A stretch of 25,728 nt of DNA from a virus. Taxonomy: Duplodnaviria; Caudoviricetes. How positions within the stretch are numbered: position 1 is the stretch's first letter; each line of letters begins with the position of its first letter. The notes beneath the pieces are model-generated. The model was not told where the DNA came from. It saw only the letters and a program-made list of their open reading frames with translations, and did not search any database. Position numbers and translations under genes: made by a program. The stretch lies in IMG/VR virus record IMGVR_UViG_3300022719_000188, positions 1-25,728 of that record. The stretch is one strand, 5' to 3'. Shown here piece after piece: positions 3,320 through 25,728 of this stretch.

Positions 3320-4135
3320 TCAACTTTTGTTCATGCTCGGATACATGGCTTCAAGCCGCTGCTGGTATTCGCTCTTGCCGGCATTGGCGCCGCCGCCTTC
3401 GCCGCCGCCCTGCAAGCCGTGCTCGCCGCCAAGCTTAAGCACCTTTTCAAGCGCCATGACGCCCTCCGCGCTGGCGGCCATCGCCGTGACGATGTTGGCT
3501 TCCGCGCGATTGAGCACGCCGCGCTTGACCAGCCCTTCGACCTGGCCGACCGCCGCATTGATACGCTTGCCCGCTCGCGCCTTGACCTGCTCCGGGTCGG
3601 ACACGCCAGGCGCGAGCTTTTTCATCTCTTCGCCAACATTGATCGGATCATCGAGGATGCCATTTTCGCTGAGCTGGGAATAAAGCTCGGAGATCGCGCC
3701 GTTGAACTGCTCGTTCGACAGCCCGTTCTTGTGGGCGATATCGCGCCAGATCGGCAGCACCTCGTCATCGCTCAGATCGCCGAACTTCTGCTTGAAGTCA
3801 TCGCTCAGGCTCAGCTCGTAGCCGTCCGGCTTTTCCGGCGGCCGGGCCTGCTCGCCCAGCTTGCCAGCCAGCTTGTCGATGGTCTCCTGGTCGGTCTTGC
3901 CCTTTAGCTCGGCAAGGTGCTCGGGCAGGCCGTCCGGCCAGTAGACTTGCGCCTCGCCGCCATCACTGGCGGCGTTGCCCTGATCGCCGCCGCCAGCTTC
4001 GGCCTCTCTCGCGGCTTTGCTCAGCGCGGTTTCCGCCGGCGGCGGATCGCTCTTGCTGGCATCCCCTTCGCCGGTTCCGGCCTGCGTGCCGTCCGCCTCG
4101 CGCAGCACATCAAACAGATCGTCGAAAATCAGCAT
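3320..4135 (-). CDS. Putative capsid scaffolding protein
   Basis: 271 aa, acidic; PEKPDGYEL, AHKNGLSNEQF and terminal LEAMYPSM; directly upstream of the capsid gene. Confidence 0.7.
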   Translation of the reverse strand: MLIFDDLFDVLREADGTQAGTGEGDASKSDPPPAETALSKAAREAEAGGGDQGNAASDGGEAQVYWPDGLPEHLAELKGKTDQETIDKLAGKLGEQARPPEKPDGYELSLSDDFKQKFGDLSDDEVLPIWRDIAHKNGLSNEQFNGAISELYSQLSENGILDDPINVGEEMKKLAPGVSDPEQVKARAGKRINAAVGQVEGLVKRGVLNRAEANIVTAMAASAEGVMALEKVLKLGGEHGLQGGGEGGGANAGKSEYQQRLEAMYPSMNKS

Positions 4136-4148
4136 GGGTCGTCTCCCG

Positions 4149-4478
4149 TCAGCTCTGCGGCACCTGAAGCGCCTGCAGGATCATGAACAAAACGCCGTTC
4201 TGGCCCTCACGCCGGGCCTTGGCGATCGCGTAGCTCTCCGCGTTTGCCGGATTAAGCTCTTGGTCGGTAGGCGGCCGCAAAAGCGTGTTTTTCGCCAGCC
4301 AGTCGATGAAGCGCGCGCCCTCCGGCGTGGCCAGCGCCGCCTGCACCACGGCGGCTTCCTCGCGCATCTTGTGCTGGGCCCGCTCGCGCTGCTTGCCAGC
4401 CTGCGCGATGAGATGGTCGGTGTCCATCCAGTCGCCGGTGCGCAGGGTCTCGAAAATCTGCTGCTGTGGGTTCGTCAT
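4149..4478 (-). CDS. Bbp19-like phage protein
   Basis: 109 aa; TPEGARFIDWL and REGQNGVL motifs; between portal and scaffold. Confidence 0.7.
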   Translation of the reverse strand: MTNPQQQIFETLRTGDWMDTDHLIAQAGKQRERAQHKMREEAAVVQAALATPEGARFIDWLAKNTLLRPPTDQELNPANAESYAIAKARREGQNGVLFMILQALQVPQS

Positions 4479-8834: not shown

Positions 8835-9380
8835 TCAGCCGTCCGACTTCCCGCCGTCCGACTTCTCCGCCGCGCCGTCGATAAAGCCTTGATTTTGCTC
8901 GCCTTCATCGCCCGCCAGCGGCAGCCCCGCCAGCCCGCTCGCATCGCCGCTCAGCTCGCCGATCACCAGCACGCCGACGCTCTTCTCGCTCACCTCGATC
9001 GCCTGGGGCTGGCGCTGATGCACATACGGCGCGAGCGCAGCCGCCGCGTCCTTCTGGATCTTCACCGCGTCCAGCTTCTCGCACTGCAGCTCGGCCGCCA
9101 GCTCGTCCACCGGCATGGAGTACAGCTCGGCCAGCACGATCAGCGGCGATCGGTACTGGCTCAGGATGTACGCCGCCCATTCCTCGGTCCGCCGGTTCTT
9201 CGCGCCCTTCGGCCGGCCCGGCCCGCGCCCGCGCCGCGCGTTCGCCGTGGCCAGCGGCGATGATGCCGCGCCATTCTCGAAGCCGTCGAGCAGCGCCGGC
9301 TGATCCGCCTCACTGCCCGGCGGCGCGCCGACATCCATGTTCGCCAGCGCCGCCGCGAAGCCCTGTTTTTCGTCCGCCAT
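8835..9380 (-). CDS. Putative terminase small subunit
   Basis: 181 aa; GRPKGAKNRRT and AAAALAPYVHQRQP motifs; upstream of terL. Confidence 0.7.
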   Translation of the reverse strand: MADEKQGFAAALANMDVGAPPGSEADQPALLDGFENGAASSPLATANARRGRGPGRPKGAKNRRTEEWAAYILSQYRSPLIVLAELYSMPVDELAAELQCEKLDAVKIQKDAAAALAPYVHQRQPQAIEVSEKSVGVLVIGELSGDASGLAGLPLAGDEGEQNQGFIDGAAEKSDGGKSDG

Positions 9381-9913: not shown

Positions 9914-10894
9914 TCAGGCCATCTCGGCCAGGTCCGGCGCGGGCGCGCCCTCATCCAGGTAGAGCAGCGGGATGAAAGTCGCCCGGTAAGTCACCATGCC
10001 GAACCTGGCGCGGTGCGGCCGCACGCCCGCGAGCTTGCGCAGTACCCAGTAGTGCCGCCCGCCGCGCCAGCGCGTGCCCGCGAAGATGCGCGTGACGGCC
10101 GGGCCGGAGTTTGCGACCAGGAAGCCCTCGCCGCCGCGATGCAACTTCACGCCGTGCCGGATCAGCAGGGCGCGGCCGGCCTCGCTTTCGTCCAGCGACC
10201 CATCGATCAACTCGCGAATGGTGGCGCGCTCCCCGTCGATGTCCGTGACGACGAAATCCAGCAGATGGATCAGGCACTTGCGCGCCTCGTCCCGCTCGGT
10301 GGGCGGCGCGGGCGGCACCTCGGGCAGGCCCATCTTGCGCCACATCTCCTGCGCGCGCGTGCGGCCGTGGACCTTGAGCGCCAGCTCGATGCAGCGCAGC
10401 TTCTCCGAAAAGCTGCCGTCGCGCGCCATGTCCAGCGCCACAGGGTCGGGGCTGGCGCCGGAGTTGTGGCCGTAGCCGCCGTGGCGGCGGATGGCGGGGA
10501 GGACTTCGTGCGTGACCCATTTGCGGAAGCGGTGCTCGACGGTGCCCGGCGTCGCGGCCCGGCGCGAGCGCAGCACGAGCATGTAGAGGCCGCTTTCGGA
10601 GATGATGTTGACGTTCGGGTTGCCGCCTCGATCGCCATTTGCATCGTTTACGCCTAGGGAACCAGGGGGGTTCCCTAGATTAAACCTAGGGTACTCTCCG
10701 GTTTCCTCCGCCCATTTGCGCAGGTTGATGACGTCCTTTTCGTCGTCATCGAGCGCCGCCAGCGCGTCCGATGTATTCTGAATGCCGAGCACGCGGCAGA
10801 CATGCGCCGCCACGAACCACGGCTCGCCGCCGCGCACGATCACCTGCACGGCCTGGTCGTCGAAGACAAAGTTCTCAATTGTGTTGTGAAGCAT
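9914..10894 (-). CDS. Bro-N domain protein (antirepressor-like) with a C-terminal domain resembling the helicase C-terminus
   Basis: GEPWFVAAHVCRVLGI, IISESGLYMLVLRSR and FRKWVTHEVLPAIRRHGGY are canonical Bro-N motifs; AGGAG RBS. Confidence 0.9.
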   Translation of the reverse strand: MLHNTIENFVFDDQAVQVIVRGGEPWFVAAHVCRVLGIQNTSDALAALDDDEKDVINLRKWAEETGEYPRFNLGNPPGSLGVNDANGDRGGNPNVNIISESGLYMLVLRSRRAATPGTVEHRFRKWVTHEVLPAIRRHGGYGHNSGASPDPVALDMARDGSFSEKLRCIELALKVHGRTRAQEMWRKMGLPEVPPAPPTERDEARKCLIHLLDFVVTDIDGERATIRELIDGSLDESEAGRALLIRHGVKLHRGGEGFLVANSGPAVTRIFAGTRWRGGRHYWVLRKLAGVRPHRARFGMVTYRATFIPLLYLDEGAPAPDLAEMA

Positions 10895-10956
10895 AGCCCG
10901 CTCCTACTGATGGGTTGCGAGGAGCATGGCGATCCGTTGCTAGCGGCGCGCCAAGC

Positions 10957-11036
10957 CCGGGGCTAGCAAGCACGCAGTAGGCCGTGCCGCACGCGCCTTT
11001 AGGCTTGCGCCCTGGACATGCGCGCGTGCACCCCGG
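10957..11036 (-). ncRNA. c4-type antisense RNA (P1/P7 C4- or P4 CI-like)
   Basis: About 80 nt closed by CCGGGG/CCCCGG, with an internal GGGC GCAA GCCT hairpin; carries CCTACTG and TTGCTAG, complementary to CAGTAGG/CTAGCAA pairs found both upstream and downstream on the same strand. Confidence 0.8.
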
Positions 11037-11142
11037 ACGCTACGGCCTGTCCGGCCGGCGCGTCCGCCTACTGTCTCATGGGCTTGCTAGACCCCGCTTT
11101 ACATTCGCATCGCTGCGAAATATCGTCAACTGACAACGAGGG

Positions 11143-11846: not shown

Positions 11847-11862
11847 CCGGGTTTTTTGCTGT

Positions 11863-11941
11863 CGGGCGGACCTCCGTCCGCCCGTTACGGGCCTAAGGCC
11901 CGGCGCGCAGTCGCGCGCTCAGCCGCGCTGATGCGTGGCTG
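11863..11941 (-). repeat. Four-hairpin dispersed element, copy 3 (lacks the GCACCCC end; terminal loop GGAG)
   Basis: + strand: CGGGCGGAC CTCC GTCCGCCCG TTA CGGGCC TAA GGCCCG GCGCGC AGTC GCGCGC T CAGCCGCGC TGAT GCGTGGCTG; lies between convergent genes. Confidence 0.85.
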
Positions 11942-14078: not shown

Positions 14079-14672
14079 CTACCGCCCCGAGCGCTCTTTA
14101 TCGCGCTGCTTCATCGCCTCGCGCGCGTCGTGAACGGTCGCCGCGATCTTCCCGGCCTCGCCGCGCGGCCGGCGCTTTGACGGGTCGCGGGTGAGAAGCA
14201 CGATTTTGGGGTCTTTGCTCTCCGCCGGCACATCCGTGCCGGCGTTACGGCGCTCGCGCCGGCCCGCAGTCGCGGGCTCAGCCGCGCCTGCGGCGCGTCT
14301 GGGGTGCCCCGCGCGATGCTCCTGGCGCTCGGCTTCGTCGACCTGCGCGCTCATTTCCAGGTAGATCGCCCGGAACACGTTATGCGCCGCGCGCACGGCC
14401 GCCGGCAGGTCAACCCAGGCCGGCGGGTCCGGGGCCTGCCAGCCCAGATCGACGGCCACCTGGTAAAGCGCGGAAGCCGGCGCATCCGGCCAATCGTCAA
14501 GCTGCCCGGCATAGGTCGCAAGCACCACGCGCACATGCTGGCCGTGCCGCGTCGTCCAGTGCGCCCAGCCCGGCGCGCCGCCGCAGGCGAGAAACACCGC
14601 GCGCGCCGCCGCTCCGGCCGCCGGGGTGATGTGCTGGCGCCCGAAGGCGCGGCAGACGGGGTCGTCGGTCAT
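14079..14672 (-). CDS. Hypothetical protein containing an in-frame hairpin element
   Basis: 197 aa; GGAGG RBS; ATGA coupling. Confidence 0.65.
   Translation of the reverse strand: MTDDPVCRAFGRQHITPAAGAAARAVFLACGGAPGWAHWTTRHGQHVRVVLATYAGQLDDWPDAPASALYQVAVDLGWQAPDPPAWVDLPAAVRAAHNVFRAIYLEMSAQVDEAERQEHRAGHPRRAAGAAEPATAGRRERRNAGTDVPAESKDPKIVLLTRDPSKRRPRGEAGKIAATVHDAREAMKQRDKERSGR
14223..14307 (-). repeat. Four-hairpin dispersed element, copy 4 (intragenic)
   Basis: + strand: CGCCGGCAC ATCC GTGCCGGCG TTA CGGCGC TC GCGCCG GCCCGC AGTC GCGGGC TCAG...CTGGGGTGC. Confidence 0.9.
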
Positions 14673-15831: not shown

Positions 15832-16292
15832 GCGTATTCCCTGACATTGGACCGGCGCTGGCGCGCGCGGCCGTCAATGTCCCGGCTCACACGCGGATAC
15901 GGATTGAGCCGCTTCATCGCCGTAACAACCACGCCGCGCTCAATGACAAAGCGCAGCCCGCCGTAATGAAACGCGCGCGCGCCAAGCGCGATCGCGACCC
16001 GCGCGCGCTTCTCGATGAGCTGACGCTCGCGCGCAATCTCTACCAGCCCCAGCGCCTGCGCCGCCAACAGCACCTCGGCGTCATGCGCGCCCGGCCCGGC
16101 CAAGGCGCGCGCGTCGCTCAGATCGAGCCGCAGCTCCCGCTCCAGCCAGCGCAGAACCGCGTGATTGGACACGATCGTTTCTTTGCTGGTCCGGGCCGCA
16201 TCCGCGGCCCGGTTACGGCGCTCGCGCCGGCCCGCGGTCGCGGGATCAGCCGCGCCTTGAGGTGCGTCTGGGGTGCCACCAGCTAAAGTCAC
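15828..16292 (-). CDS. Hypothetical protein whose N-terminus is encoded by element copy 6
   Basis: GTGA/ATGA coupling at both ends; core VSNHAVLRWLER...FVIERGVVVT. Confidence 0.65.
   Translation of the reverse strand: MTLAGGTPDAPQGAADPATAGRRERRNRAADAARTSKETIVSNHAVLRWLERELRLDLSDARALAGPGAHDAEVLLAAQALGLVEIARERQLIEKRARVAIALGARAFHYGGLRFVIERGVVVTAMKRLNPYPRVSRDIDGRARQRRSNVREYA
16191..16276 (-). repeat. Four-hairpin dispersed element, copy 6 (intragenic)
   Basis: + strand: CCGGGCCGC ATCC GCGGCCCGG TTA CGGCGC TC GCGCCG G CCCGC GGTC GCGGG ATCAG...CTGGGGTGC. Confidence 0.9.
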
Positions 16293-18523: not shown

Positions 18524-18951
18524 AATAGTCCCACGCGTCTGGCCAGCCCCTCGGGCAGCTCGATTTCGCCGTTGCCGGAAAAGCGCACATGCTCCCGCGG
18601 CAGCCACACCCAGGCCGGCTCGATTTCCTCGCCGGTCACCGGGTCAATTTTGGCGCGGGCGCGCGCCGGAAGCACCGCGATATGCCGCGCCGTCTCGGCC
18701 ATCACGCGGATCGCCACGAAGTCTTCTTCCCAGTCACCGCGCCCATCCGGGCGCGGATACGGACCTAAGGTCCGACCGCCAGTCGGCGGCTCAGCCGCGC
18801 CAATGCGCGGCTGGGGAGCGCCTTCGCTGGCCTCATGCACCCCAGACACGCCCTCTGGCGTGTCTGAGCGCGCGACTGCGCGCCGCGCCGTTGGCGCGTG
18901 ATCGCCGGACGGATGTCCGGCGCAAGACAAAGACAGCTCCATCGCGCTCAT
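18520..18951 (-). CDS. Small phage protein with two hairpin elements in its N-terminal half
   Basis: ATGA coupling at both ends; C-terminal AET...VWLPREHV...IELPEGLARRVGLL pattern of small phage proteins. Confidence 0.6.
   Translation of the reverse strand: MSAMELSLSCAGHPSGDHAPTARRAVARSDTPEGVSGVHEASEGAPQPRIGAAEPPTGGRTLGPYPRPDGRGDWEEDFVAIRVMAETARHIAVLPARARAKIDPVTGEEIEPAWVWLPREHVRFSGNGEIELPEGLARRVGLL
18737..18819 (-). repeat. Four-hairpin dispersed element, copy 8
   Basis: + strand: CCGCGCCC ATCC GGGCGCGG ATA CGGACC TAA GGTCCG A CCGCC AGTC GGCGG CT CAGCCGCGC CAAT GCGCGGCTG GGGAGC. Confidence 0.9.
18837..18922 (+). repeat. Four-hairpin dispersed element, copy 9 (inverted partner of copy 8)
   Basis: GCACCC CAGACACGCC CTCT GGCGTGTCTG A GCGCGC GACT GCGCGC CGCGCC GTT GGCGCG TGAT CGCCGGAC GGAT GTCCGGCG. 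Confidence 0.9.
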
Positions 18952-22308: not shown

Positions 22309-22616
22309 CCGATGAGCCGCACAAAACCAACGAACAGGTCACCATTGACCGCAGACCTGGTGACGACCTCCCCATCGCCGTCTCGGTCTGGCAGTTCCGC
22401 GCCGGAAAATTCGTCGAGATGGAGGCGTTCCTCGAATTTCTCCGCCACTGGCAGACAGCCTCCGAGCGTGCCGAAAAATGGAAAAAACGCGCTCAGGCCA
22501 GCAAAGAGGCCCTGGTCAAGGCCCGCAATGACGCGTTCCGGGCCGAAAGCGAACTGCGGGGCATCGTGAGCGATCTGGACGACGCCCTTGAGCGCACACT
22601 GGAGCGCAAATCATGA
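22305..22616 (+). CDS. Hypothetical coiled-coil protein
   Basis: 103 aa; GGAGGA RBS; coupled on both sides. Confidence 0.65.
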   Translation: MTDEPHKTNEQVTIDRRPGDDLPIAVSVWQFRAGKFVEMEAFLEFLRHWQTASERAEKWKKRAQASKEALVKARNDAFRAESELRGIVSDLDDALERTLERKS

Positions 22617-22927
22617 CCGCGCGGGCGCTCACGCTCACCGAGGTCGCCGCCGAGCTGGGGCGCTCGCCGTCCTGGCTGGCGAGCAACTGGAAAAAGCTGG
22701 TCGCGCGCCACGGCATGCCCGCCCCGGTCATCGAGGGCGGGCTGCTGAGCTGGTCGGCCGCGCAGTTCTATGCCTGGCTCGACCGCGACCTGCCCGACGA
22801 GCTGCGCCCGGTCGCCGCGGCCTACCGCGCCGCGCTGGCCGCCGCGTCTGATCCATCCGCGCGCATCACCGCGGATGAAACCGCGGCCTGGCGCGATCAT
22901 CTCAACCGAAAATTTGCAAGGACCTGA
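22613..22927 (+). CDS. AlpA/excisionase-like winged-HTH protein
   Basis: LTLTEVAAELGRSPSWL...GMPAPV...WSAAQFYAWLD pattern; upstream of the integrase. Confidence 0.7.
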   Translation: MTARALTLTEVAAELGRSPSWLASNWKKLVARHGMPAPVIEGGLLSWSAAQFYAWLDRDLPDELRPVAAAYRAALAAASDPSARITADETAAWRDHLNRKFART

Positions 22928-23491: not shown

Positions 23492-23607
23492 TGGCGATTG
23501 CGTATTGCACCCCAGCCGCGCCTTCGGGCGCGGCTGTAAGCCCGACCGGGCGTCGCGCCTCAGGCGCGGATCAGCGGCACGGATTTGCCGCTGGAGGCCA
23601 AAAATGA
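23491..23607 (+). CDS. 38-aa mini-ORF (MAIAYCTPAAPSGAAVSPTGRRASGADQRHGFAAGGQK), mostly encoded by element copy 10
   Basis: TGATG overlap upstream, ATGA overlap with the integrase start, GGAG RBS. Confidence 0.5.
   Translation: MAIAYCTPAAPSGAAVSPTGRRASGADQRHGFAAGGQK
23507..23593 (+). repeat. Four-hairpin dispersed element, copy 10
   Basis: GCACCC CAGCCGCGCC TTCG GGCGCGGCTG TAA GCCC GACC GGGC GT CGCGCC TCA GGCGCG GAT CAGCGGCA CGGATT TGCCGCTG. Confidence 0.9.
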
Positions 23608-24743
23608 AGCTCAAGGTCGCGTATCTCAAGTGGCGCGACGGCCGCCCGCGCTGGGAGCCGGGGCCGCGCCTGCGCGAGAAAGGGTGGCGGGGCCGTGACC
23701 TGAAGGACGAGGGCGGCGACTGGCTCACCTTGCCGGACGCGATTGCCGCGGCGGAAAACCTCAATGCCGAGGTCGCCGCCTGGCGCGCGCGCGGCGGCAG
23801 CGTCCCGCGCCGGCCTGCGCCCCCGCGCAAGTCCGCGCGCACCTGCGAGCACCTGTGGGACCTGTGGAAGCAGTCCCCGAAATTCACCAACCTGAAAGCC
23901 TCCACCGCGCGCGATTACCGCAACAAGATGCGCGTGTTCCTCGACGAGTTCGCCGAAGTCCCCGTCGCCGCGATCGAGCGCTCACACCTGTACGTGTGGT
24001 GGGAGCGCCAGTATCACGCGCGCGGGCACACCATGGCCAACGGCATTCTCGCGGTCGTGCGCTCGATGTTTTCGCACGCCACGCGCATCGGCTGGCGCGC
24101 CGACAACCCCGCGCGCGAGCTCGGCCTGCCCGGCGCGGCGCCGCGCCTGGTCCTGTGGCTTCCCGGTGAGGTCTCAGCGCTTGTCGACGCCGCTGACCGG
24201 CTCGGCCTGCCCAGCATCGGCGACGGCGTGATCGTCGGGCTGCACACCGGCCAGCGCCTCGGCGACGTGCTGGCGCTGCCCGACCGGCTGTTCGCCGAAA
24301 CCCGCATCAAGCTATCCCAGGCCAAGCGCGGGGCGCGCATCGACGCGCCGATGACCCCGGCGCTTTCGCAGCGCATCGCCGCGATCCGCGCGCGCCGTCA
24401 CGCCCATTCGGTCGTGGCGATGGACGCGCCGCTGATCCTGCAGGAGAACGGCCGGCCCTATGACAGCAACAATTTCGGCAAGGCGTTCCGCCGCGTGCGC
24501 GCGGAAGCCGCGAAGGCGCGTCCGGCCGTGGCCGACAAGAAGTATCAGGATCTGCGCGACACCGCCGTCACGCGCCTGGCGCTGGCCGGATGCGAGCTGT
24601 GGGAGATCGGCGCGATCAGCGGGCACTCGATGAAATCGATCACCACGATCATCCGCCACTATCTCGTGTTGCAGCCGGAAATGGCGGATGCGGCCATCGC
24701 CAAGCTGTCCCGCTGGCTCGAAGAACAGGAGATCGCGCTGTGA
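23604..24743 (+). CDS. int: Tyrosine recombinase/phage integrase (379 aa)
   Basis: GGAGG RBS then ATG 23604; TGQRLGD (R), QAKRG (K), QDLR, SGH and RHY catalytic motifs. Confidence 0.93.
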   Translation: MKLKVAYLKWRDGRPRWEPGPRLREKGWRGRDLKDEGGDWLTLPDAIAAAENLNAEVAAWRARGGSVPRRPAPPRKSARTCEHLWDLWKQSPKFTNLKASTARDYRNKMRVFLDEFAEVPVAAIERSHLYVWWERQYHARGHTMANGILAVVRSMFSHATRIGWRADNPARELGLPGAAPRLVLWLPGEVSALVDAADRLGLPSIGDGVIVGLHTGQRLGDVLALPDRLFAETRIKLSQAKRGARIDAPMTPALSQRIAAIRARRHAHSVVAMDAPLILQENGRPYDSNNFGKAFRRVRAEAAKARPAVADKKYQDLRDTAVTRLALAGCELWEIGAISGHSMKSITTIIRHYLVLQPEMADAAIAKLSRWLEEQEIAL

Positions 24744-25309
24744 TGCCCAAAGTTCCGTATCTCAAATGGCGCGACGGCCGCCCGCGCTGGGAGCCGGGGC
24801 CGCGGCTGCGCGATCAGGGCTGGCGCGGGCGCGATCTGAAGGGCGACGACGGCGAGTGGCTGGATTTTCCCGACGCCATCAAGGCGGCTCAAAACATCAA
24901 TGTTGAAGCCGGAGTGACGACGCGCATCCCGAAGACACGCCCCAACAGCAACGCCAAAGGGTTCGTGTATTTTTTATGGTCGGAAGACTGTATCAAGATC
25001 GGCTATTCGCGCGAGGCTTTCCGCAGAATTCAAACATTGAACGCGAGCAGCCCATCGGGCATCAAAGCCATAGGCATTGTGCGCGGAACGCGCGCCGACG
25101 AACAGCGCCTACATGACGCACTGTCCGCTTCTCGCAACTATGGCGAATGGTTTTGGGCCACCGATCACGTCATAGCCACCATGACCCAGTCGCTGGCGCA
25201 ATGCAAACCAGTCGTTGCTAAAAGCATTCGAAAAAACGACAATCGGCAACAATCGGCAAGGACAGCGGTCGCAACCCCTTTGAATAGCGAATGCGACATA
25301 GATTTGTAA
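24743..25309 (+). CDS. Fusion of an integrase N-terminal domain copy and a GIY-YIG-superfamily (T5orf172/MUG113-like) domain (188 aa)
   Basis: TGATG coupling to int; 38/50 aa identical to the Int N-terminus; GFVYFL...IKIGYS...RRIQTL..SSP...EQRLHDAL..SRNYGEWF motif. Confidence 0.85.
   Translation: MPKVPYLKWRDGRPRWEPGPRLRDQGWRGRDLKGDDGEWLDFPDAIKAAQNINVEAGVTTRIPKTRPNSNAKGFVYFLWSEDCIKIGYSREAFRRIQTLNASSPSGIKAIGIVRGTRADEQRLHDALSASRNYGEWFWATDHVIATMTQSLAQCKPVVAKSIRKNDNRQQSARTAVATPLNSECDIDL
25239..25258 (+). repeat. Tandem ACAATCGGCA x2, candidate integrase arm-type sites
   Basis: 10-bp direct repeat about 40 bp from the att core. Confidence 0.5.
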
Positions 25310-25347
25310 TCAGTAGGTCGCGGGTTCGATTCCTGCAGCCGGCACCA
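25301..25347 (+). other. att core: 3' half of tRNA-Thr(TGT)
   Basis: GATT TGT AATC AGTAGGTC GCGGG TTCGATT CCTGC AGCCGGCA CCA gives anticodon arm, T-arm and CCA end; there is no D-arm or acceptor 5' strand upstream. Confidence 0.9.
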
Positions 25348-25728
25348 ATAAGATCAATGACATAGCCAAAAATAATCGTGAACAAAACCGGACCGGCTTT
25401 CCCGCCGAGAAGTCGGACATCCGACTTGGTGCAGAGCCACCGCGCGCCCGTCCGAATGAACTTGCCTACCATAAGTATTCCAAGGTTTCGCAAGTTTTTG
25501 CGTTTCTATACTTGCGCGCCGTCACAAGTGTTAATAAAGTACATCCAGCGCCAAGACATAGCCGGACCGCCCGGCGCCGATGGGAGACGCGGGAGCAATC
25601 CGGCGGAGAAACACCAAGGCAAGGCGGGAGAGTGAAACAGGGGATGCCGGGCGCGCCCCAACGCACCCGGCCACGGCGTCATCCCCACCAGACGGGAGAT
25701 GTCTGATGAAACGCAAATCTACCCGAAT

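Follow-up and report, generated by a model that had tools for sequence, protein, structure and literature searches.

A small phage gene joining an integrase-type N-terminal domain to a T5orf172 domain at an attachment core

Genes and sites at the attachment core

The virus record IMGVR_UViG_3300022719_000188 (25,728 bases, the whole of which is referred to here as the window) carries a tyrosine integrase gene (int) and, directly downstream, a gene whose product joins an integrase-type N-terminal domain (N-domain) through a linker to a T5orf172/MUG113 domain, followed by a disordered tail (Table 1). The fusion frame is open throughout 24743–25309. Its ATG overlaps the int stop codon (TGA, 24741–24743) and is preceded by AGGAG at 24727–24731, in agreement with the coupling to int claimed in the first-pass annotation of this DNA, and the fusion is predicted to be translated with int; the database starts the gene at an in-frame GTG at 24740. 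Integrase residues R218, R318, H341 and Y353 are invariant among 74 relatives.

The duplication of the integrase N-domain described in that annotation was reproduced. Positions 24758–24907 and 23622–23771 are identical at 38/50 encoded residues and 119/150 nucleotides, and their longest exact run is 38 bp (23631–23668 and 24767–24804). The claim that the duplicated peptide is under selection likewise held (dN 0.14, dS 0.75, ratio 0.18 by the Nei-Gojobori method; Fisher p 3.5e-5). The two copies make up D2, among the window's largest direct-repeat families (171 nt, 78%). Recombination between them could logically delete 1136 bp; the corresponding joint was absent from the contig joints listed, which is uninformative since contigs drop rare variants. 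Another outcome of N-domain duplication was seen in contig L242, where an integrase open reading frame (ORF) has two tandem N-domains (4001–4369).

A profile search of the C-terminal domain, as the first-pass annotation proposed, placed residues 73–144 above the Pfam cut-offs for both T5orf172 (PF10544, 25.9 vs 20) and MUG113 (PF13455, 27.4 vs 22.3). For this domain PHROGs returned solely families of unknown function, NCBIfam nothing and the Atlas generic T5orf172 clusters; the N-domain had no Pfam, PHROGs or NCBIfam match. A model of the fusion built from a 49-row alignment (mean predicted local distance difference test score, pLDDT, 88.5) resolves two domains joined by a flexible linker, and residues 161–188 form a tail that is disordered (pLDDT 51–61). 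Modeled in isolation (pLDDT 94.4), the N-domain forms a three-stranded sheet with a C-terminal helix. Its top three matches among 48,161 chains are integrase arm-binding domains—those of lambda (1z1b, Z 4.5, root-mean-square deviation (rmsd) 2.3, 46 residues aligned; 2wcc, Z 4.2, rmsd 2.8, 46 aligned) and of the HPI integrase (3jtz, Z 4.2, rmsd 3.4, 51 aligned)—with Z-scores below 5 and within 1 of unrelated rows. For the C-terminal domain, seven of the top 12 rows are GIY-YIG chains (all Z <5), including 2lwf (Z 4.9, rmsd 2.8, 65 aligned); further GIY-YIG matches are I-TevI (Z 3.9) and UvrC (Z 3.7). Foldseek at E 0.001 gave no match for the whole model or the N-domain. With every Z-score below 5 and no significant Foldseek match, the folds serve as consistent leads and do not amount to proof. 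Across 65 fusions, K85, G87, R95 and E120 are invariant, and Y76 and E135 are kept in 64; going by motif position and the published passage on the phage nuclease Odn rather than by residue-level superposition, we take R95 and E120 to be the catalytic pair.

The att core is the 3' part of tRNA-Thr(TGT), from anticodon arm to CCA. In contigs from four runs of one study, the 5' half of the tRNA joins at 25301 and host-like ends depart at 25347, which sets the core at 25301–25347; no whole tRNA was found in the window. The fusion's TAA (25307–25309) lies in the anticodon loop of this fragment, so that the gene does stop inside the tRNA-derived core, as first noted. Since phage and host share the final two codons and the stop, integration would leave the protein unchanged, and the idea of the stop as an integration switch was rejected. 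More generally, 40/43 same-strand cores of the integrase family begin at such an xxTAA loop. An open frame of at least 100 codons ends there in 3/5 fusion slots and 1/19 other long slots; the three fusion slots look related, and P0004 and other members of the family stop earlier.

Arm-site offsets were taken from 14 fusion-less close relatives chosen for carrying TCCGAC. Relative to the T-arm, these have a site at −96 to −98 (14/14) and a second at −57/−58 (11/14; inverted nearby in 2/14 and absent in 1/14); those with a distal arm add an inverted pair near +92/+100. In the window this distal pair falls exactly on +92/+100, which places the window in the attP state; the canonical TCCGAC sites of its int-side arm are missing. 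The candidate arm repeats that the fusion gene was first said to span correspond to a real 10-bp tandem repeat, which we rejected as canonical arm sites on its matrix score (4.6 vs 11–15 for 25409–25428), position and orientation.

In two of the four runs (X1 and X3) the same core is joined to the 3' end of a related int (at least 90% alike; joint 24703–25303) in a contig that does not match the fusion gene. Two further observations concern 25357–25507 and 25642–25709: the same runs hold a relative with a different distal arm, and a joint that leaves out 66 bases close to the right end of the window is common to all four, so that the last 90 bases of the window may differ from the contigs.

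Table 1. Coordinates of the fusion gene, its neighbors and the related sites in the window
Feature	Position	Strand	Remarks
Tyrosine integrase, 379 aa (P0002)	23604..24743	+	Source-like N-domain copy at 23622-23771
Fusion gene, 188 aa (P0001)	24743..25309	+	Integrase-type N-domain, linker, T5orf172/MUG113 domain, disordered tail
Integrase-type N-terminal domain, aa 3-56	24749..24910	+	Glu17 codon 24791-24793
T5orf172/MUG113 (GIY-YIG superfamily) domain, aa 73-144	24959..25174	+	Pfam profiles
10-bp tandem repeat in tail-coding region	25240..25259	+	Sequence
TGCGAC-type site	25268..25273	-	Same position as site of fusion locus L264
att core: 3' part of tRNA-Thr(TGT), anticodon arm to CCA	25301..25347	+	Contains fusion stop codon
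Inverted pair of TCCGAC arm-type sites	25409..25428	.	Canonical distal-arm position, T-arm +92/+100
Weaker third arm-type site	25449-25459		Next to distal TCCGAC pair
Second arm-type module	8840..8894	+	Two exact TCCGAC sites 15 bp apart (8840-8864) and box resembling that of integration host factor (IHF); matrix scan
C4/ash-like element	10928-11046	-	Ahead of Bro-N antirepressor gene 9914-10894; profile E 5e-8
Small helix-turn-helix (HTH) gene, candidate excisionase	22613..22927	+	Upstream of int; Pfam HTH_23 below cut-off

The fusion family and its match to arm sequences

Full-length fusion homologues, whose absence would have refuted the first-pass annotation, do exist: 65 distinct fusions were found, and dozens of uncultured phages have one. 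A full-protein search gave three other full fusions among eight matches. The N-domain, searched against 1.84 billion representatives, gave 285 matches, the best 150 of which comprise 48 fusions, 83 integrases and 19 fragments or other proteins; no other recurring partner domain occurs among those 19. In the nuclease-domain tree, 62/65 fusions fall in one group with 3/15 non-fusion domains (support 91/91, below the starred threshold); L108, L123 and P0006 lie outside it. Nuclease-domain identity among the fusions has a median of 35% and a maximum of 63%. No full fusion was found in 50,697 annotated phages (two records matched the C-terminal domain only), nor in 401 genomes, where up to eight candidates were scored per genome and none of 26 matches extended over both domains.

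Single-protein scans of viral contigs yielded no loci; alignments recovered 13 distinct fusion loci, including the window. In all 12 distinct loci with downstream DNA, no other ORF separates the fusion from the tRNA-derived core; the 13th stops where its contig does. In all ten loci that are long enough, the strand of the fusion also carries an int of the same family upstream, even where other genes intervene. The cores are 3' fragments of tRNAs of Thr, Arg, Lys and Ile/Met type (anticodons read by eye). When integrases were fetched without reference to the fusion, 3/57 with an N-domain and at least 800 bp of downstream sequence carried it, as did 0/70 without an N-domain. On a 73-row integrase tree the 11 fusions require nine changes, at least seven of them forced, and 47/500 shuffles are as low; judged on this tree, the fusions are patchily distributed and no more clustered than shuffles.

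The slot between int and core otherwise holds varied, unrelated small genes that are often coupled to int and end in an arm or IHF-like box. Examples are the slots of L021, L104, L268, L028, L032, L027, L030, L006 (YaaC) and L196 (Lar), whose genes mostly belong to no Pfam family. No nuclease family was found among 41 cargo ORFs from fusion-less slots, for which YaaC and Lar were the two Pfam matches.

Comparison of integrases with their arms points to a near one-residue code. Arm type was defined as the commonest T-x-x-G-A pentamer around the core, which could be called in 45 of 61 fusion-less loci and was unclear in 16, and position 17 as the residue that follows a conserved PR(W/F) motif. 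Among these integrases, E goes with TCCGA (15/16), V or I with TGAGA (6/10), Q, N or S with TGCGA (6/9) and L or T with TGTGA (5/5). The code fits 33/45 called loci, a figure inflated because the code was read off the same data; after collapsing relatives the fit is 21/31, 12/20 (50% identity) and 9/14. The mutual information was reached by 0/5000 shuffles, and position 17 was the top column (38 loci aligned).

In the fusions, residue 17 matches the arm type of their own element in 8/10 cases (permutation p 0.008); L108, L123 and L179, with no core or no callable pentamer, stand outside this comparison. The match holds even where the fusion N-domain overall is not closest to the local Int. This agreement, and the covariation between residue 17 and arm sequence, are new here. 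With E17, the window fusion would be expected to bind TCCGAC sites, including those of its own element. That the fusion N-domain binds arm-type sites, as the first-pass annotation supposed, is thus well supported by comparison and very probable, given fold neighbors together with the residue–arm covariation; it is the covariation that ties the domain to repeated sites flanking the core, as in lambda-type integrases.

A second arm-type module and neighboring elements

The window has a second arm-type module, at the 3' end of ORF 8835–9380(−). This lies upstream of an ORF that we infer, from its position and a Walker A motif and with no Pfam match, to be terminase-large-subunit-like; the box beside the TCCGAC sites is like the IHF consensus. 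The TCCGAC module is present in 17 viral contigs (L334–L350), two of them identical to the window; 14 have it beside a homologue of the terminase-like ORF, and the other three match the ORF that ends at the module. A TGAGAC version occurs in 30 contigs (L351–L380), 19 of them with the terminase-like ORF adjacent. Where the integrase of the same contig was available, TCCGAC goes with E at residue 17 in 4/4 cases and TGAGAC with V or I in 9/10, and one N-type integrase accompanies TGCGAC. This is an independent test of the residue-17 code, which the code passed. The module is conserved in many related phages, its sequence switching with residue 17, with or without the fusion. Two results speak against a module strictly tied to this integrase: an N-domain match was missing from 4/5 further module-bearing records, and in the ~1.5 kb upstream of the terminase-like gene the strict module pattern was missing from 6/9 records. 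A full-text literature search, judged by titles and the start of abstracts, returned no description of arm sites at terminase genes.

Seven members of the fusion family (L001, L131, L184, L232, L108, L179 and L266) are preceded by a C4/ash-like element, which scores above the Rfam C4 cut-off in L001, gives weak matches in L179, L232 and L266, and was recognized by alignment in all six members other than L001. DNA of L267 gave no alignment to it, and a profile trained on the seven found it in 0/62 fusion-less slots. The window has no such element ahead of its fusion; its single copy stands at the Bro-N gene. In P1-type operons antirepressor genes occupy such a C4-cassette position, and P1-type C4 control permits a burst of expression after infection.

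Homologues of the small HTH gene lie upstream of int in 7/8 fusion loci and 116/125 fusion-less loci (123/133 in all, by iterated profile), which makes this gene a candidate excisionase of the window phage. Other window genes include those for a GP7 capsid protein, a head-tail connector, a toprim primase and the Bro-N antirepressor; together these mark the phage as temperate and podovirus-like. Most of the named integrase relatives come from Hyphomicrobiales and other Alphaproteobacteria. GC-rich intergenic repeats of ~50–80 nt (11853–11930, 14212–14289, 16180–16257 and 18725–18802), with related inverted copies near 1698–1756, 18837–18921 and 23507–23591, the last just upstream of int, are probably regulatory or terminator-like.

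Origin and possible function of the fusion

The window's nuclease domain is closest to those of P0004 (52%), L284 (47%) and, level with two others, L264 (45%). On the integrase side its sister is P0015, the putative partner of P0004. Yet of these N-domains the window's alone is nearly a copy of the int beside it. When 239 candidates were ranked by similarity to each fusion N-domain, the own Int came 1, 1, 1, 5, 54, 58, 110, 129 and 171: first for the window, L108 and L123, 58th for P0004 and 129th for L284. An exact run of at least 38 bp occurs in 1/168 int–int pairs of similar protein identity, and synonymous changes between the window's two copies are unevenly spread (permutation p 0.04). 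The window and L284 have E-type integrases, but TGCGA-type int-side sites or none that are canonical, whereas fusion-less E-type loci with a same-strand core have int-side TCCGA in 15/17 cases; in these two elements the int-side arm seems to travel with the fusion gene. The simplest account is that a cassette of nuclease domain and int-side arm arrived from a TGCGAC-type element, and that the N-domain of the fusion was then converted from int. The duplication first proposed would thus be right for the window copy, with the fusion itself older than the duplication.

The closest known protein is Odn (Gp88) of vibriophage ICP1, which likewise has an N-terminal DNA-binding domain (RepA_N) captured from a donor, and its specificity with it, ahead of a C-terminal T5orf172 domain (PMC8263062). 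There, Odn is described as cutting DNA through a catalytic Glu of the T5orf172 domain (PMC8263062). The RepA_N of Odn comes from a rival satellite, and its target is absent from the carrier. By contrast, the domain captured by the window fusion is that of a tyrosine integrase belonging to the same family as the carrier's, the predicted sites occur in the carrier itself, which is a temperate phage, the gene lies beside att, and fusions mostly match their carriers' arms. The fusion is a T5orf172 member by profile, Odn-like in design but not an Odn.

Putative T5orf172 homing endonuclease genes (HEGs) of ICP1 and T5-like phages share the nuclease domain, modular swaps of DNA-binding domain and patchy occurrence beside an essential locus (10.1101/2023.03.23.533998, PMC10448857), and T5orf172 is reported in the former to be enriched among phage HEGs. 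The DNA-binding part of these proteins is mostly a CapR/DUF723/DUF4397 zinc finger or RepA_N, and no integrase domain is named in the passages concerned (10.1101/2023.03.23.533998). Adi of ICP1 is reported to make the attP of a rival element a place where DNA is destroyed; it is not a nuclease and acts via a serine recombinase (PMC9638900), whereas the fusion has its own predicted nuclease domain. With its modeled three-stranded sheet and C-terminal helix the N-domain may correspond to the arm-binding domain of lambda-type integrases, from which it differs in being joined to a nuclease rather than to core-binding and catalytic domains. A literature search of the same kind as above returned no integrase arm domain fused to T5orf172, and HEG domain tables in supplements could hold one. 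Free-standing GIY-YIG HEGs, such as the T4 Seg proteins and I-TevI, also have modular binding domains and sit patchily beside an essential locus.

Because its catalytic-type residues are invariant and Odn provides a precedent, nuclease activity of the fusion is likely, on sequence and analogy. What such a nuclease would do is less certain, and we tentatively favor an arm-guided homing-type nuclease, while rating this somewhat below an even prospect. The fusion would bind integrase arm sites through its N-domain, and the cut would fall between int and the arm in related phages or prophages without the gene. Repair would then copy the gene in between int and the tRNA core, after which the N-domain, in the window, would have been refreshed from the neighboring int by gene conversion. 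To protect itself, the gene may displace the cut site beside the arm, as happens with I-TevI, which binds and cleaves at separate sites, or its expression may be brief. We prefer homing for the last-gene position beside a predicted site, the patchy spread together with one broken copy, the traveling arm and the re-matching of the N-domain to the local integrase. The invariant nuclease-domain residues, the residue-17 match and the related int joined to the same core without this gene in two of four runs count on the same side. The broken copy is L265, which has an in-frame TAG (1031–1033) at the conserved Glu135 position of the GEWF motif, by decay or assembly error. Gene-less cognate alleles, as expected for a homing gene, do exist: 3/57 integrases carry the fusion, and the fusions are scattered on the 73-row tree. 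The first-pass annotation had also offered a nuclease that excludes rival elements at this tRNA; an arm-directed nuclease is indeed favored, but the tie to one tRNA is weakened by the variety of cores, and the predicted address of the fusion is arm type, not tRNA.

Several points weigh against homing, and self-protection is its main weakness. The carrier genome holds predicted sites at 25409–25428 and 8840–8864, so that an unrestrained nuclease would strike itself, and five other carriers (L184, L232, L266, L267 and L001) keep matching int-side sites; for that reason, general self-immunity through arm-site loss was rejected. Judged by residue 17, the L131 and L264 fusions do not match their own arms, and the L284 fusion matches the one on which it lies. 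Evidence for conversion is modest, given the run-length p value and runs of up to 33 bp between unrelated ints. Nuclease-domain and integrase identities are correlated (Mantel rho 0.58, p 1e-4; 11 pairs, one of them putative), which fits descent with repeated loss as well as it does homing, and no near-identical fusion was seen in two different integrase backgrounds. The int–core slot is a general cargo site that houses many unrelated genes in like fashion, so that int coupling and arm adjacency alone are not special. The C4-like element ahead of seven members suggests regulation at the level of the phage. The fold comparisons, with every Z-score below 5, count on this side too.

Odn-like interference without homing is somewhat unlikely by our estimate. 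Here the fusion, expressed briefly on infection, would cut arm-type sites, either at attP or in the second module, of an element with the same arm type, be it a resident prophage, a phage infecting alongside or a satellite, and would be kept for its benefit to the phage. This reading gains from the shared Odn architecture, from the C4-like element found at fusion members and at none of 62 fusion-less slots, from strong conservation with co-descent, and from a second predicted target at packaging genes in a setting where related elements co-occur. Alone it leaves the fixed last-gene position and the exchange of the int-side arm unexplained, no C4-like element precedes the window copy, and self sites are still a problem. 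A further rival is a competitor of integrase that does not cut, or only nicks, and that tunes integration, excision or late genes from the arm sites at att and the second module, in the manner of an antirepressor cassette. Self-type specificity with intact own sites, the place of family members in C4-like cassettes (the window's own such element being at the Bro-N antirepressor) and the re-matched N-domains of the window, L108 and L123 all fit this role. We nevertheless hold it to be unlikely: it would make the nuclease domain superfluous, yet fusions make up 48 of the best 150 N-domain matches with no other recurring partner, the putative catalytic Arg and Glu are invariant, and 54/57 relatives do without the gene.

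Shuffling of int with T5orf172 might also yield a folded passenger of no functional importance in a tolerant slot. The unrelated small genes of that slot, the broken copy and the position of L108, L123 and P0006, possibly separate origins, outside the main group would suit such a passenger, which the dN/dS of the duplicated part, the invariant residues in both domains across 49–65 divergent sequences and an above-chance residue–arm match make very unlikely. Most improbable of all is a dedicated recombination directionality factor needed for excision of the window prophage, a role raised in the first-pass annotation. The gene is coupled to int, adjoins att and has predicted arm binding; it is absent from most relatives, of which 3/57 carry it, and the separate HTH gene stands upstream of int in the great majority of loci, so that this proposal is weakened. 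Excisionases are small winged-helix proteins present throughout their group; the fusion is a 188-residue two-domain protein in a minority of elements, and neither profile nor fold comparison showed any resemblance to them.

Going beyond homing as such, the fusion might retarget itself: with a near one-residue code, N-domain conversion and an arm that it drags along, it would re-aim itself after entering a new phage, and could also strike the second module, which in this phage group would tie integration to packaging or late control. This extended version is, in our judgment, quite unlikely. If true, the fusion would parasitize the one non-coding address that a temperate phage can hardly change. 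The second module is independent of the fusion, and may indicate that integrase has an unrecognized role in packaging or in late transcription. One small protein and a handful of short DNA fragments would be enough for a direct test of the residue-17 code and of both predicted classes of site, and the series of fusions and integrases is natural material on how arm-binding domains shift specificity. Should the fusion cut DNA, the Odn principle would extend from replication origins to site-specific recombination sites, and a mechanism would be at hand by which integration modules are swapped and temperate phages compete in Alphaproteobacteria-like hosts.

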